Source: Promethearchaeota archaeon
Lineage (GTDB): Archaea; Asgardarchaeota; Heimdallarchaeia; Hodarchaeales; Hodarchaeaceae
Length of the DNA: 64,000 bases
NCBI GenBank assembly: GCA_048938105.1
Contig: JBHLMN010000017.1
Span: 80,714-144,713, forward strand
Direction: 5' to 3'
Positions 29,180 through 36,327 of this stretch are shown here, one piece after another. The number at the start of each line of letters is the position of its first letter. Positions within the stretch are counted from its first letter, which is position 1. The notes beneath the pieces are model-generated. The model was not told where the DNA came from. It saw only the letters and a list, made by a program, of their open reading frames with translations, and did not search any database. The position numbers were made by a program, and so were the translations under genes.

Positions 29180-30208
29180 ATGAAATTATACACAAGAAAA
29201 TTGGGTAAGAGTAATATCAAAGTTAGTGCAATGGGAATGGGTTGTTTTGCGATTGGAGGACCTTTTAAGAATGAGGATGGTCGTCTTTTTGCCTATGGAA
29301 ATGTAAATGATCAAGAATCAATAGAAACAATACATAAGGCTTTGGAAATTGGAGTGAACATATTTGACACTGCCGAGGCTTATGGACAAGGTCATAGTGA
29401 AGAAGTGCTAGGCCTGGCTTTAAAAGGTAGGAGAGACGACGTTGTCATCGCAACTAAATTCAGGAGTGTATATGACCCAAAAAAGCAAACAAATGTTGAT
29501 AAAAAAATTATTCTAGATAAATTGCAAGATTCTGTTAATAAAAGCCTGAACAGATTACAAACAGATTACATAGATATTTATCAGTTACATAATTCTCGTC
29601 AAGATCCTTCAAGTGCTTTATTAATCAGGGATTGTCTAGAAGAATTAGTAGATGAAGGAAAAATTCGTTATTATGGTTGGAGTACAGATGATCCCAATCG
29701 AGCAAAAGAGTTTGCTAAAGAAAAGCATTGTGTGGCATTACAGTATGTTTTAACGCTTACTCGGATAAATACACCGATAGCAGAATTGTGTGAAGAAAAT
29801 AACTTGGCAGGGATTATTCGGAGCCCCTTCGCAAGTGGAACTTTAACAGGAAAATACACCAGAGACACTAAGCGTAGTTCAGATCATATGTTATCAGAAG
29901 TTGATTTTAACACTAAGCGTTATATTAAAACATTCCAGGCTTTAGACCAGTTGAAAGAGTTATTAACGGAACATGGTCGGACTTTAGTTCAAGGAATTCT
30001 TGGATTTATTTGGACGAAGAATGATCGTGCTATTCCTATTCCAGGAGCAAAAACAGTTGACCAAATAACTGAAAACGCGAAGTCTCTGGAATTAGGCCCC
30101 ATTTCACAGCAATTAATGAGTGAAATTGATTCAATATTCTCAGATTTGCAGCTAGATTTCTCTTATGATAATTTTACTTACTATAAAGAAAATAAAAAGG
30201 ACAGATAA
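29180..30208 (+). CDS. Aldo/keto reductase
   Basis: RKLGKSNIKVSAMGMG, FDTAEAYG, ATKF, SLNRLQTDYIDIYQLH, PIPGAK. Confidence 0.93.
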   Translation: MKLYTRKLGKSNIKVSAMGMGCFAIGGPFKNEDGRLFAYGNVNDQESIETIHKALEIGVNIFDTAEAYGQGHSEEVLGLALKGRRDDVVIATKFRSVYDPKKQTNVDKKIILDKLQDSVNKSLNRLQTDYIDIYQLHNSRQDPSSALLIRDCLEELVDEGKIRYYGWSTDDPNRAKEFAKEKHCVALQYVLTLTRINTPIAELCEENNLAGIIRSPFASGTLTGKYTRDTKRSSDHMLSEVDFNTKRYIKTFQALDQLKELLTEHGRTLVQGILGFIWTKNDRAIPIPGAKTVDQITENAKSLELGPISQQLMSEIDSIFSDLQLDFSYDNFTYYKENKKDR

Positions 30209-30211
30209 TCC

Positions 30212-31294
30212 ATGAAATTTCGAAAATTAGGAAAAAGCGGAATGCATGTTTCTCTCATTAGTTTTGGGACAATGGCGTATGGAGGAGCACAATATAAATT
30301 CACAGAAAATCCAATTTCTAAAGAAGATGCCTTAAGATGTCTTGAAAAAGCAAGTGACTTAGAGATTAACTATATAGATTGTGCTGATATCTATGGGGCT
30401 TATGGTCAAGCTGAAAATATCATTGGGGAGTTCATTCAAGAACATGCTCGCTCAAACTTTGTAATCAGTAGTAAGGTCATGTTTCCAATGAGTACAAATG
30501 TTAATGATCGAGGACTTAGTAAAAAACACATCTATGAATCAATAAATAATACATTAAAACGTCTTAAAACTGATTATCTCGATGTATATTACTGTCATAG
30601 GTATGATTTTGCTACCCCACTGGAAGAAACTATAACTGCAATGAATAATTTGATCGATCAAGGTAAAATACTCCATTGGGCAACGTCAAACTGGAGAGCA
30701 GTTCAATTAGAACGTACTTTTGGTATTACATCAAGATTAGGATTAGAACCTCCTGTATGTGATCAAACTAAGTATAATATGTTTCAGAGATATGCGGTAG
30801 AAATTGAATTACCTTATACAGCTGATCACTACGGTTTAGGTGTTGTTGCTTACAGAATATTAGCTGAAGGATTGTTAACAGAAAAATATAAACTTTTAAA
30901 ACTTGAAAAACTTTCCAAAGAAGATGAAAGACATTTTTCTGGTTATTTGGAGAACGACCCTCTGATTATCGAGAAAATCAACCAATTACTTGAAGTAGCA
31001 GATGAGCTAGAAATTACACTTCCGCAACTTGTATTTGCCTGGAGTTTGCAGATTCCTTATATCGACACTGTATTAATGAGTACAAGGAATCCTGATCGAA
31101 TTGAGGAAAATGTTCAGGCAATTAGTATTAAATTGAAACCAGATATTTGCGAGAAAATAGAATTGATTTTGAACAATCGGCCTATGCCGATTAGAAGAGG
31201 GATTACTGAATCATTTGTTGATTTCAATAATTTTATTCTTCAAAATCCCAAAGCAAAAATTGGGAAATTCCCTCCAGATCCACAGACATTTTAA
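30212..31294 (+). CDS. Aldo/keto reductase (Kv-beta/AKR6-like)
   Basis: DCADIYG, ISSKV, GLSKKHI, LKRLKTDYLDVYYCHR. Confidence 0.92.
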   Translation: MKFRKLGKSGMHVSLISFGTMAYGGAQYKFTENPISKEDALRCLEKASDLEINYIDCADIYGAYGQAENIIGEFIQEHARSNFVISSKVMFPMSTNVNDRGLSKKHIYESINNTLKRLKTDYLDVYYCHRYDFATPLEETITAMNNLIDQGKILHWATSNWRAVQLERTFGITSRLGLEPPVCDQTKYNMFQRYAVEIELPYTADHYGLGVVAYRILAEGLLTEKYKLLKLEKLSKEDERHFSGYLENDPLIIEKINQLLEVADELEITLPQLVFAWSLQIPYIDTVLMSTRNPDRIEENVQAISIKLKPDICEKIELILNNRPMPIRRGITESFVDFNNFILQNPKAKIGKFPPDPQTF

Positions 31295-31316
31295 TCGTCA
31301 TAAAAGAGGTTTTCAA

Positions 31317-32318
31317 ATGAAATACAGAAAAATGGGAAAACATGGAATGAAACTCTCAGAAATTAGTATTGGAACTATGTATTATGGTTCATATATCAAA
31401 AAGGAAGCTGCATTAGCGTGCTTAATGGAAGCCTTGAATCAAGGAATTAACTTCATCGATTGTGCTGATAGATATGGTATCGATGATTCTGAACTTCCAA
31501 TAGATCAACGAATACGTGCAGAAGTCATCCTTTGTGAATTTCTACAGGATCAAGACCGCGATGACTTAGTAATCAGCAGCAAAGTCTTCAAACAATTACG
31601 TGAAAGTCCAAATAGTGGAGGCTTATCACGTAAACATATTAGAGAATCAATTAGAGACTCGTTGAAATATCTTCAAACCAATTATCTGGATATTTATTAT
31701 TGTCATAGACCAGATCGTGAAACTCCTTTAGCAGAAACAATTAGAACTATGACTAATCTAATCGAAGAAGGACTTGTACATTATTGGGGAACCAGTTGGT
31801 GGCCTCCATTTCTTGTAGAAAGAACTATAGGAATCGCTAAAGAGCATGGATTAATACCTCCCGCTGTTGAAGAACCACCTTATCATATAAATGCACGTTT
31901 TATTGAAGTAGAGCTCTTTGATGTTGCAAACTACCATGGGTTAGGAATTACAGCTTTTGAAGCTTTGGCTGGAGGATTTTATACTGGAAAATATGTTGAT
32001 GGAATACCAGAAGAAAGTCGTTTCTCTATTGACCTTATTAGGGAAGGAATACCACCAGGGTTGTTTGAAAAACGTAGACCACAAATATTAAAGCTTATAG
32101 AAGTAGCAAACTCTCTTGAGATACCTTTGAGTCAGTTAGCGTTAGCATGGGTCTTACGTAATCCCGAAATTTCATCAACTATTATGGGTGCTTCGAAACC
32201 TGAACAAGTAAGTGAGAATGCGGGAGCATGCGATGTAAGCTTAGATGAAGAGACATTAGAGAAGATAGAAGAAATATTAGATAACAAACCGACAACACCT
32301 TTTAGACAATGGGGTTGA
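31317..32318 (+). CDS. Aldo/keto reductase (Kv-beta/AKR6-like)
   Basis: Start reassigned to ATG 31317 (MKYRKMGK, GAGG RBS); DCADRYG, GLSRKHI, YYCHRPD, QLALAWVL. Confidence 0.92.
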   Translation: MKYRKMGKHGMKLSEISIGTMYYGSYIKKEAALACLMEALNQGINFIDCADRYGIDDSELPIDQRIRAEVILCEFLQDQDRDDLVISSKVFKQLRESPNSGGLSRKHIRESIRDSLKYLQTNYLDIYYCHRPDRETPLAETIRTMTNLIEEGLVHYWGTSWWPPFLVERTIGIAKEHGLIPPAVEEPPYHINARFIEVELFDVANYHGLGITAFEALAGGFYTGKYVDGIPEESRFSIDLIREGIPPGLFEKRRPQILKLIEVANSLEIPLSQLALAWVLRNPEISSTIMGASKPEQVSENAGACDVSLDEETLEKIEEILDNKPTTPFRQWG

Positions 32319-32357
32319 CAAGAAAGAGGAAACTAATTCAAGACGTTCAGTTGGGGT

Positions 32358-32732
32358 ATGACCATGCTTGAAATTGCTATGAATCAAATTAATGTTACTA
32401 ATCTCGAGGAAGCAATTACTTGGTATACAGAAGTATTAGGATTTAAACTCTCAAAAGAACATTACTACCCTCCTCAAGCTGTGGATTTAATCCAAAAAGG
32501 GGGAATTCGATTACTTTTGTATAAAGTACAAAAACATACTGTGATTGATTACCCAAATCAAGCTCAATCTCTAATAATATTTAGAACAGATGATCTAAGA
32601 AAACTGAAGAAAGAGTTAACAGAAAAAGGAGTCGAATTCCTCTATTCTGAGGCAAAAGAATTTCCTGCAGGTATTTTTAATGCCTTTAAAGATCCATATG
32701 GTAATGTTCATGAGATCGTCCAAATTCACTAG
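32358..32732 (+). CDS. VOC/glyoxalase-family protein
   Basis: INVTNLEEAITWYTEVLGF and FKDPYGNVHEIVQ. Confidence 0.88.
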   Translation: MTMLEIAMNQINVTNLEEAITWYTEVLGFKLSKEHYYPPQAVDLIQKGGIRLLLYKVQKHTVIDYPNQAQSLIIFRTDDLRKLKKELTEKGVEFLYSEAKEFPAGIFNAFKDPYGNVHEIVQIH

Positions 32733-34179: not shown

Positions 34180-35550
34180 TCATCTGAGACTTATTTTCCA
34201 AATTGTACGTTTATTTTTCTCTTCAATCATTTCAGGTTCATCTAATGTAAGAGTTTTCAACATACCTATCAAAAATCCTTTTGTAATTAAATTTGAGATT
34301 TCTTTAGGAAATCTTTCATCAGACCAATCTTTAAGAGTAACTATTATAGAATCTTCTTTCTGAATAACATTAGGTGAGTCTTGTTTTTCTATAGTTTCTG
34401 GTACAGAATATGTACCAATTAAGGATTCAATCCATGCGTTCTGCAAAAAATAAGAATACTCTTTTCCATACCTTACTGATCTTTCAACAAGATCAGCTTT
34501 TGATTCAGCAAGTACTCTGGGATAAAAAATTAAATAAGAAAAATCATCAGCGATTAATCTAATTTGTTTCTCAAAATAATTTGTAAAATCTTCAAATAAT
34601 CTTTTTAGAACCATAGAGGGAAGAGAGAAAAAGAAAGCCTTAGAAAGGGCAATATTACTACTATCATCATTAATTGTAGTAAAATAGAATATTCCTTTGT
34701 CAAAATAATCAACGAAGTACTTTAAGCAAATATTGACATTTTCAACTAAATTAGCTCTTTTCTCGACGTCAAATTTATGAAGAAATATTGATAAACGAGG
34801 CGGGGGATCATTAACACGTGAAGCAATTTCCCAAATATCTGTTAAGTAGTCTCTTGCTATTTGAAATAGCTCTCGATTTTGGATATCAATTACAAACACG
34901 ATTGCTGCAATTCCTTTCCAACTTATGTCTCGTGAAATATACTCTTGACGAAAATTAGATTGTCCCCCAAAATCCTTTACTAAGAGCTTCTGTCGTAAAA
35001 AGTCCTCGAATTTAAGAGATGTCTCTATGCCTATAGTAGGTTTAATGTCTTTAATTTCTTCAGCTGACCATCTATCAAAAAAAACATTTTTGATAGAAGT
35101 TTTACCAGCCAGAGCGAGGCCTACTAGTGCGACTTTTGAAGGAGGAGGAGCTTTTGAGATTCTTTTCGACTTCATATAGAATTTCTCTATAATCCGAACC
35201 AAATTTAACTGAAAAATCTTTTTCGTTTCATCTATTTCATTCTCTGCGAGAATTTGAGATGTTTCTAACGCTAATTCTTTAGTAAATGGTTCTATTGATT
35301 GAAATGTCACTGATTCATCAAAAAGAAGACGAATGTGGAATTTTTTAAAAGGAATGAAAAATAGACATTTGTTTGAGAACATTATATGTTGGATCTTAGA
35401 TTTATTCTCGTTTCCCTTAGACATATTCTCAAGTGCATTAAATAAAATAGAAATATAATGGAAATTGACATACTCTTTTGAAGAGGGTTTATTTTCGTAT
35501 CTGAATAATTCCACTTTATCAAAGTTATTAATTGTTGCCAGTCGAAGCAT
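34180..35550 (-). CDS. Rag/Gtr1-like GTPase fused to N-terminal longin-like and C-terminal V4R-like domains
   Basis: GLALAGKTS, PTIG, DFGGQ, Rag-type G4 HKFD and G5 TTIND. The flanking-domain calls are weaker than the GTPase call. Confidence 0.78.
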   Translation of the reverse strand: MLRLATINNFDKVELFRYENKPSSKEYVNFHYISILFNALENMSKGNENKSKIQHIMFSNKCLFFIPFKKFHIRLLFDESVTFQSIEPFTKELALETSQILAENEIDETKKIFQLNLVRIIEKFYMKSKRISKAPPPSKVALVGLALAGKTSIKNVFFDRWSAEEIKDIKPTIGIETSLKFEDFLRQKLLVKDFGGQSNFRQEYISRDISWKGIAAIVFVIDIQNRELFQIARDYLTDIWEIASRVNDPPPRLSIFLHKFDVEKRANLVENVNICLKYFVDYFDKGIFYFTTINDDSSNIALSKAFFFSLPSMVLKRLFEDFTNYFEKQIRLIADDFSYLIFYPRVLAESKADLVERSVRYGKEYSYFLQNAWIESLIGTYSVPETIEKQDSPNVIQKEDSIIVTLKDWSDERFPKEISNLITKGFLIGMLKTLTLDEPEMIEEKNKRTIWKISLR

Positions 35551-35745
35551 TCTAGAATCACTATTCCAGTCAAAGAATAAAATGCGATTTTACTCCATAA
35601 CCTAAACCTAGTATCACTAGTATAATGCTGCAATAATTTAAATATTAGCATTTATTTGACATTATTTTTCATATAGATTTTATATTATCTCTTTTCAATG
35701 AAGTTAAAGATGCTAACATCTAGATATCGCTAATATTACACATTT

Positions 35746-36327
35746 TCATTTAATTGTATTTAGAATCGCAGAGATCTTAATCCAATAGTTCTTAAGATCT
35801 GGATGTTTTCCATTCTTGATTTGGCTAGATATTTGTTTCAATATATTCCTTAGCTCTAATGAATCTGAACAACTAATTTTAGGGGAAATCAGAGCAATTA
35901 AGTATTTACATTGGCCTCCTCTTATTTCATCATCTTCAAAAAAGTCAAAAAAAATGAAACTATCGTGTTGGACATATTCTATTCTCAACAAGAGATCTTG
36001 AGGAGCAATAGCGTCCGCATAACCATAAATAGCGACTGATGCTTGGAATAAATAATTTCCAATTGTTTCTATAGGAATAAAAGAAATGTCCAATAAATGG
36101 GGGGGATAATTATCTTGAAGTGTCGGACCACTTTCTTCATCCCAGATTATCCAGAATAAAATTTGAGAATCTGTTTTATGTGATGAGAGAAATGAATTGT
36201 AACAACTTTGTGTCTCCTTATCAACGTTTTTAGCTTCTAAATGTGAATTATTCAACTTAGTAAATCTGCTAATATAAGATTTAAAGGTGGAAATGAGTCT
36301 TTTCAAGAAACTAACACCTTTATCCAT
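35746..36327 (-). CDS. uDENN/longin-domain protein (folliculin/SMCR8/NPRL2-like N-terminus)
   Basis: WIIWDEESGPTLQDNYP and FEDDEIRGGQCKYLIALI match uDENN motifs. Confidence 0.62.
   Translation of the reverse strand: MDKGVSFLKRLISTFKSYISRFTKLNNSHLEAKNVDKETQSCYNSFLSSHKTDSQILFWIIWDEESGPTLQDNYPPHLLDISFIPIETIGNYLFQASVAIYGYADAIAPQDLLLRIEYVQHDSFIFFDFFEDDEIRGGQCKYLIALISPKISCSDSLELRNILKQISSQIKNGKHPDLKNYWIKISAILNTIK

Follow-up and report, generated by a model that had tools for sequence, protein, structure and literature searches.

A stand-alone longin protein beside a three-domain Rag-type GTPase in a Hodarchaeales genome: a candidate GAP and its GTPase

Do Rag-type GTPases and the longin proteins that regulate them in eukaryotes have a simpler counterpart in archaea, and could it be recognised from two neighbouring genes? 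The question is raised by a 64,000-nucleotide stretch (hereafter the window) of contig JBHLMN010000017.1 (positions 80,714 to 144,713; assembly GCA_048938105.1) from a Promethearchaeota archaeon of the order Hodarchaeales, in which two co-oriented open reading frames (ORFs) lie on the minus strand between 34180 and 36327, P0002 first and P0001 downstream of it. An earlier note, made from the letters of the DNA, had taken them for a uDENN/longin protein with a folliculin-type arginine finger and a Rag-like GTPase, and had seen in them a possible minimal form of the switch that serves TORC1 signalling. The two adjoining genes are indeed present, as are all the motifs quoted (WDEESGP and DDEIRGGQCKYLIALI in P0002, HKFD and TTIND in P0001) and the arginine codon at 35920-35922 (Table 1). 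The eukaryotic proteins FLCN, NPRL2 and SMCR8 act as GTPase-activating proteins (GAPs) by inserting such an arginine beside the catalytic glutamine of their GTPase. We argue that P0002 and P0001 are a candidate pair of this kind, well supported by comparative data; that P0002 is a receiver-less GAP-type longin with P0001 as its Rag-type GTPase we hold to be evenly poised between true and false.

The evidence begins with the fold of P0002. An AlphaFold2 model built on an 86-sequence alignment (predicted local distance difference test, pLDDT, 88.7) has a longin topology behind two N-terminal helices, in the order β(56-63), β(67-74), α(86-101), β(110-116), β(121-131), β(139-148), α(153-171) and α(178-189). 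WDEESGP covers the end of β1 and the start of β2, which is opened by G67-P68, while Arg136 sits in the loop 132-138 between strands 121-131 and 139-148, in a block of pLDDT 94; it was placed there by loop topology and not by residue-level superposition on FLCN R164, NPRL2 R78 or SMCR8 R147. Judged by topology, the β4-β5 loop and the β1-β2 turn would share one edge of the sheet. This arrangement has a precedent, as the GP motif is reported to be specific to GAP-type longins (C9orf72, SMCR8, FLCN, NPRL2), where it adjoins the arginine finger, and to be absent from longins of the guanine nucleotide exchange factor (GEF) type; residues W33-D34 of C9orf72 are essential to its GAP activity, and Asgard longins bear GP and arginine arranged alike (PMC12290439). 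DENN-type GAPs, too, have their arginine finger between β4 and β5 of the longin subdomain (bioRxiv 10.64898/2026.01.05.697756).

Structural comparison, which the earlier note had proposed against longins of the FLCN, SMCR8 and NPRL2 kind, places P0002 among the FLCN/FNIP/C9orf72/NPRL kind. The best Foldseek matches of the model in the Protein Data Bank (PDB) were subunits of GATOR1 and the SEA complex, chains of the FLCN-FNIP2 complex and the Lst4 longin. VIA-align gave Z scores of 14.7 for a Lokiarchaeal longin (8yqg), 12.8 for Lst4, 12.4 and 11.9 for two chains of the FLCN complex (6nzd_H the former), 11.2 for C9orf72 and about 10.5 for NPRL subunits, with generic SNARE and TRAPP longins and roadblock proteins at 8-10. 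Neighbours in the ESM Atlas include Avl9 (first row, template modelling score, TM, 0.65), archaeal folliculin-annotated proteins and SMCR8 (both 0.68) and NPR2-annotated clusters. Direct sequence searches with P0002 gave no Pfam match at E-values up to 1, with the Folliculin and NPR2 models showing no significant match, no NCBIfam match and no match among PDB sequences. The best whole-domain match of a P0002-family profile in the PDB is human C9orf72 residues 30-157, at a marginal E of 0.72, and the alignment sets WD..GP against WDNILGP with the spacing of W33-D34...G38-P39. A transitive link to Folliculin runs through a 449-aa paralogue in the same genome, which BLAST relates to P0002 (E 2.6e-6) and which matches Pfam Folliculin at E 1.6e-6, above the curated cut-off. 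No DENN module was found in P0002, whose chain stops at residue 193, after the longin helices, and so P0002 is a bare longin; the longin half of the uDENN/longin assignment holds, and the uDENN half falls away. In sequence and in predicted structure, P0002 has the features of a GAP-type longin.

The 449-aa paralogue merits a description of its own. Encoded at G000:C52:295244-296593 (locus L002:622-1971, minus strand), it carries its longin at the N-terminus, where the match to Folliculin (PF11704) was found, has FDEEHGP in place of WDxxxGP, and lies 4.6 kb from a Rag-clade GTPase gene.

How widespread and how conserved are these features? An exhaustive HMMER search with P0002 recovered 139 representative homologues, 77 of them at E < 1e-10, while a word-index search returned P0002 itself and nothing else. 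Conservation across 86 homologues is high for W62 (85/86), D63 (72/86), G67 (85/86) and P68 (83/86), and Arg136 is kept in 71, in keeping with the proposed arginine loop. The family is mainly found in fused form: 79 of 140 representatives are receiver-longin proteins of about 300 aa, in which a Response_reg domain at the N-terminus precedes the longin, and P0002 matches many of them at E 1e-20 to 1e-23. Such fusions have been published as an NPRL2-like longin fused to two-component domains (Liu et al., bioRxiv 10.1101/2020.10.19.343400). Other partners of the longin are histidine kinase plus receiver, PAS, GAF, RsbRD_N, DUF1638, TPR repeats and, in two cases, a GTPase domain; WD..GP is kept in all of these, and the arginine in all except the PAS fusion P0049. 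The two single-chain GTPase-longin fusions, P0045 (360 aa, Arf-type G domain) and P0068 (378 aa, Ras-type), both retain WD..GP and the arginine.

P0002 itself has no receiver in its ORF, and no receiver remnant or frameshift was found in the 380 bp upstream. Its residues 11-189 align with residues 114-288 of a receiver-longin protein from a same-genus genome (G129) at 36% identity, and its residues 1-49 align where the fused relatives have their receiver-to-longin linker. A domain tree puts P0002, with a long branch, inside the receiver-fused members, though the nesting is weak (support 0.75). Strong matches to the family profile occur in five other genomes of the genus (G101, G129, G135, G138 and G183), and all five homologues have frames of 294-348 aa. 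Receiver loss in the P0002 lineage, as opposed to primary absence, would therefore be the likeliest history. Could P0002 then be a decaying response-regulator remnant, adjacent to P0001 without present function? Its open frame of 194 aa against the longer same-genus frames, its long branch and the replacement by leucine of Met143, nearly invariant in the family, point that way. However, the ORF is intact, every other family-invariant residue is kept, the fold model is very confident, the upstream DNA is free of receiver debris, and other stand-alone forms exist in metagenomes, such as P0058 on two contigs, which together make decay highly improbable. The short metagenome contigs that carry stand-alone homologues are mostly uninformative, and one further candidate stand-alone form, P0005, was rejected as a frameshifted receiver-longin gene.

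The presumed partner, P0001, is a GTPase of three domains. Its G domain is best matched by Pfam Gtr1_RagA (70.6 bits with a cut-off of 22, against 35.5 bits for Arf), and among sequences of solved structures a 385-aa 'GTP-binding protein' (8zla) comes first, followed by RagA and Gtr1; together with the clade described below, this confirms the Rag-like assignment of the earlier note. P0001 keeps the catalytic glutamine of DxxGQ, and an arginine supplied in trans is therefore plausible. The AlphaFold2 model, built on an alignment of 11 orthologues (22-38% identity), is of moderate confidence (pLDDT 72.5), and orthologues with the same three-part architecture occur at 32-38% identity. The N-terminal domain is modelled with a longin-like order of strands (E) and helices (H), E2-9, E14-19, H30-45, E55-57, E62-67, E71-77, H83-102 and H106-132. 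Profile-profile comparison of this domain with the P0002 family detected no homology, and the idea that the locus encodes two related longins therefore rests on topology. A clear Rag-type roadblock domain is not evident at the C-terminus, where the model of the whole chain has long helices followed by β-β-α-β-β; Pfam gave no match to this part in any of the 11 orthologues, and its ESM Atlas neighbours are V4R, TRAPPC6B and HNOB at TM about 0.5. A possible likeness to V4R/Bet3 (TRAPP) is thus offered as a lead. The window holds no second Rag copy beside P0001, and tandem paralogues are seen in relatives. Elsewhere in the same genome, a local paralogue cluster (G000:C52:96539-103479) packs three GTPase genes with the HKxD motif of the Rag clade, about 300-335 aa each, into 7 kb.

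Within the same phylum, about 14 kb around each of 40 receiver-longin genes was annotated for ORFs with home-made profiles; a small-GTPase gene lies within 4 kb in 28 cases, nearly always co-oriented. By comparison, in the P0002 genome, which has about 74 small-GTPase genes, 10% of random ORFs have one within 4 kb, and only 2.5% of ORFs of at least 120 aa have one within 300 bp. The pairing is preserved across at least six different gene layouts. The commonest in family f13 is a GTPase of about 182 aa, a MASE3-PAS histidine kinase and a receiver-longin gene in succession; in others the GTPase gene directly precedes or directly follows the receiver-longin gene, and larger clusters combine two receiver-longin genes with kinases, a Ras-like GTPase and up to three P0001-type GTPases. 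Five further loci (G129, G101, G183, L112 and L113) have a GTPase gene of the P0001 clade and a receiver-longin gene beside or near each other. In G129 the receiver-longin gene adjoins that of a P0001-type GTPase, and genes for a kinase and then a Ras-like GTPase come next; in G101 the two genes are 1.3 kb apart; and in G183 the distance is 7.4 kb, the two lie on opposite strands, and the receiver-longin gene is directly followed by genes for a kinase and a Ras-like GTPase. Adjacency is hence not unique to this genome, and the synteny check suggested by the earlier note links the family to HKxD GTPases in many genomes. According to Liu et al. (bioRxiv 10.1101/2020.10.19.343400), most genes of this kind lack conserved neighbourhoods, and in strain MK-D1 GTPase and longin genes do not as a rule share operons (Tran et al. 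2024, PMC10933270); an earlier structural study of MK-D1 concluded that GTPases and their regulators can seldom be paired from the layout of that genome.

The linkage is also selective for a type of GTPase. Among 111 G domains placed in a tree, a single clade (support 0.986, 43 members) holds P0001, its orthologues and eight other GTPases of the same genome, and 27 of the 35 GTPases near receiver-longin genes fall into it; by Pfam the neighbouring GTPases are of the Gtr1_RagA/Arf type. The Rag-type G4 motif HKxD is found in 42 of the 43 clade members and in 1 of the 68 G domains outside. These figures bear on the alternative that P0002 is a GAP-type longin for some other GTPase of the genome and adjoins P0001 through shared cluster history. 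Same-genus clusters do contain Ras-like small GTPases, natural fusions carry Arf- and Ras-type G domains, and the eukaryotic C9orf72-SMCR8 complex targets Arf and Rab proteins. Yet HKxD-type GTPases make up 27/35 of the neighbours while contributing only 9 of the 64 GTPases of the P0002 genome in the tree, and in both the window and G129 the directly adjoining gene encodes a P0001-type GTPase, so that another target appears improbable.

The arginine itself goes with the neighbour. A GTPase gene lies within 5.5 kb of 32 of the 37 receiver-longin genes that have arginine at the position of P0002 Arg136, as against 2 of the 10 that lack it, and both of these share a cluster with an arginine-bearing paralogue. 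Fisher's test gives p = 1.4e-4, and 0.012 when 31 representatives sharing less than 60% identity are used, values that are indicative only because related genomes are non-independent. Does this correlation also speak to the direction of regulation? Longin and roadblock domains typically serve as GEFs or platforms (DENN, Mon1-Ccz1, TRAPP, Ragulator), and the chief alternative is that P0002 binds its Rag-type GTPase as a GEF, a scaffold or platform, or an effector. Chains of DENND1, TRAPP, Mon1-Ccz1 and Ragulator match P0002 at Z 8-11, gene linkage indicates partnership and not regulatory direction, and bacterial RomRX has been re-interpreted, in a recent paper, as an effector of MglA and not a GEF. 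Against this, the combination of GP with an arginine between β4 and β5 is reported to be specific to GAPs and absent from GEF-type longins, and in the present family the arginine co-occurs with a GTPase neighbour; we consider a non-GAP role unlikely.

How, then, might a GAP pair of P0002 and P0001 work? We infer that P0002 would engage the G domain of its neighbour in the GTP-loaded state and that Arg136 would be inserted beside Gln197 of P0001, speeding GTP hydrolysis. A longin dimer is probably the active form, the partner of P0002 being a second P0002 chain or the N-terminal longin of P0001, which lacks the motifs. GAP activity of the fused relatives would be gated through phosphorylation of their receiver, a control that P0002 would have lost. 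A more specific proposal is that the pair constitutes a self-contained prototype of the FLCN-FNIP/Rag system, in which P0002 (FLCN-like) heterodimerises with the N-terminal longin of P0001 (FNIP-like) and acts on the Rag-type G domain of that same chain. We regard this proposal as doubtful, if worth keeping in mind; were it true, a longin-pair GAP acting on Rag-type GTPases would be older than eukaryotes and would first have been driven by two-component phosphorelays, not by TOR.

Several points weigh against a GAP function of P0002 towards P0001. For longin and roadblock domains in general, a role as GEF or platform is commoner than one as GAP. The arginine is absent from 17% of the P0002 family, and both natural GTPase-longin fusions have Arf- or Ras-type and not Rag-type G domains. 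The closest P0001 orthologue of G135, like that of G025 (a genome from another family), has a small Ras-like GTPase gene ahead of it in place of a longin gene. Many of the linked loci are kin, and the statistics overstate their independence. Separated by 195 bp, P0002 and P0001 may not be co-transcribed, and the long branch of P0002 may reflect relaxed constraint after receiver loss.

Table 1. Coordinates of the two genes and of their features in the window (positions from the first letter of the stretch)
Feature	Position	Strand	Description	Basis
P0002	35746-36327	-	193-aa stand-alone longin protein, coordinates including stop	ORF call, 139 HMMER homologues, AlphaFold2 pLDDT 88.7
P0002 N-terminal helical extension, residues 1-49	36181-36327	-	two helices	AlphaFold2 helices H3-31, H36-49
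P0002 longin domain, residues 52-193	35749-36174	-	β-β-α-β-β-β-α-α	AlphaFold2
WDEESGP (W62-P68)	36124-36144	-	WD-x3-GP motif, β1-β2 turn	motif scan and AlphaFold2
DDEIRGGQCKYLIALI stretch of P0002	35887-35934	-	contains Arg136	motif scan
Arg136 codon	35920-35922	-	candidate arginine finger, β4-β5 loop (DDEIRGG, residues 132-138)	conservation and AlphaFold2
Intergenic spacer P0002/P0001	35551-35745	-	195 bp, AT-rich	
P0001	34180-35550	-	456-aa three-domain Rag-type GTPase, coordinates including stop	ORF call, Pfam, orthologues of identical architecture
P0001 N-terminal longin-like domain, residues 1-132	35155-35550	-	without WD, GP or Arg	AlphaFold2 topology
P0001 Rag-type G domain, residues 139-309	34624-35136	-		Pfam Gtr1_RagA E 1.7e-19
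P0001 P-loop GLALAGKTS, G144-S152	35095-35121	-		motif scan
P0001 DFGGQ, residues 193-197	34960-34974	-		motif scan
P0001 G4 HKFD, residues 258-261	34768-34779	-		motif scan
P0001 TTIND, residues 291-295	34666-34680	-		motif scan
P0001 C-terminal domain, residues 312-456	34183-34617	-	long helices, then β-β-α-β-β	AlphaFold2

At the locus itself, the genes on either side of P0002 and P0001 are on the plus strand, and the pair is therefore isolated. Histidine kinase genes, present at most of the relatives' loci, do not cluster with this pair. A promoter and terminator scan found no terminator-like site in the spacer, such consensus scans being uninformative for archaeal promoters. Public gene calls start P0002 at codon 25 (TTG), giving 169 aa; the ATG start is favoured because homologues align from residue 11. 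An 89-aa low-complexity ORF at 35382-35651 (minus strand) overlaps the start of P0001 and the spacer and is probably no gene. Farther off, at 29180-32732 on the plus strand, lie three tandem ORFs of about 340-370 aa followed by one of 124 aa, the first and third having motifs such as YGxxxSEE/YCHRPD in common.

Some loci in relatives deserve to be recorded for their own sake. Genes of 191-192 aa upstream of P0001 orthologues in G135 and G025, tried by size as orthologues of P0002, were rejected since they encode Ras-like GTPases; they lie at L035:3035-3610 and L036:2898-3476 (minus strand), in the place held in the window by the longin gene, and the order of a Ras-like and a Rag-type gene recurs in L113 and L114. 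A large co-oriented cluster at L113:1-13398 (partly in L114) opens with a hybrid sensor kinase; two receiver-longin genes come next, then a REC-PAS kinase, a Ras-like GTPase and two P0001-type GTPases, and after these a third P0001-type GTPase, encoded on the other strand, and a 454-aa protein whose G domain is degenerate. At L089:189-6909, a Rag/Arf-type GTPase comes first, then KaiB and a KaiC-like ATPase, and after them a histidine kinase and two tandem receiver-longin genes, the first without and the second with the arginine; the Kai genes hint at a clock-like input to the GTPase/longin module.

What does the pair add to what is already published? On record are the longins as a family, their fusions to two-component domains and their GP and arginine motifs; the GTPase partner of Asgard GP/Arg longins, Arf-related or Rag/Gtr, was left as a question (Traffic 2025, PMC12290439). 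Linkage to HKxD GTPases is not described in the accessible texts of Liu et al., Tran et al. 2024 or PMC12290439, and the comparative data now point to these Rag-type GTPases as the likely partners. Particular to the window is a receiver-less, stand-alone longin directly beside a three-domain longin-Rag-type GTPase; as the longin lacks a receiver and adjoins the GTPase, the system consists of two proteins, needs neither kinase nor phosphorylation step for a test, and represents the simplest testable form of the published family. The TORC1 framing of the earlier note is not borne out. Nothing ties the pair to TORC1, and Liu et al. (bioRxiv 10.1101/2020.10.19.343400) report that Asgard archaea have no TOR kinase homologue; because the family is mainly a response-regulator output domain, its ancestral control would have been by histidine kinases. 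Should GAP activity dependent on R136 prove true, the Rag/longin-GAP switch would predate both eukaryotes and TORC1, and should it be absent, the motif-based prediction of GAP function would be weakened for all Asgard longins.

Among known systems, the Asgard NPRL2-like or Folliculin-SMCR8-type longins (Liu et al.; Traffic 2025, PMC12290439) are the closest, belonging to the same sequence family and having the same GP motif and arginine finger; P0002 differs from them in having neither a receiver nor another input domain and in adjoining a three-domain Rag-type GTPase. With the eukaryotic complexes FLCN-FNIP2 (acting on RagC/D), GATOR1 NPRL2-NPRL3 (RagA/B) and C9orf72-SMCR8 (Arf/Rab), P0002 shares the longin fold, the GP turn and the β4-β5 arginine, as well as the WD-x3-GP spacing of C9orf72 and an association with Rag-type GTPases; in contrast to them it has no DENN module, no large heterodimeric complex and no lysosome or TORC1 tie, and the likeness in sequence is marginal. 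WD, GP and arginine are united in one chain in P0002, whereas in C9orf72-SMCR8 WD and arginine are on separate subunits. Monomeric DENN GAPs of the Avl9 type have their arginine, like P0002, between β4 and β5 of the longin subdomain, but Avl9 holds the switch regions of its GTPase with a cDENN subdomain, and P0002 corresponds to the longin part only (bioRxiv 10.64898/2026.01.05.697756). As for P0001, a class of longin-GTPase fusions is known among Asgard Rag-like GTPases (Tran et al. 2024, PMC10933270), and P0001 likewise has a Rag-type G domain behind a longin-like domain; its C-terminal domain looks V4R/Bet3-like, whereas Rags dimerise through a roadblock C-domain, and unlike the generally separate genes of MK-D1, GTPase and longin are adjacent in the window. 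Finally, the MglA-MglB/RomR system of Myxococcus resembles the present one in joining a small Ras-superfamily GTPase, a GAP of the roadblock/longin superfamily that regulates it and a receiver-domain protein; in that system MglB is a roadblock protein and the receiver is on a separate protein, not fused to the GAP-type domain, while P0002 belongs to the GP/Arg class of longins and matches MglB weakly (Z 8.4).

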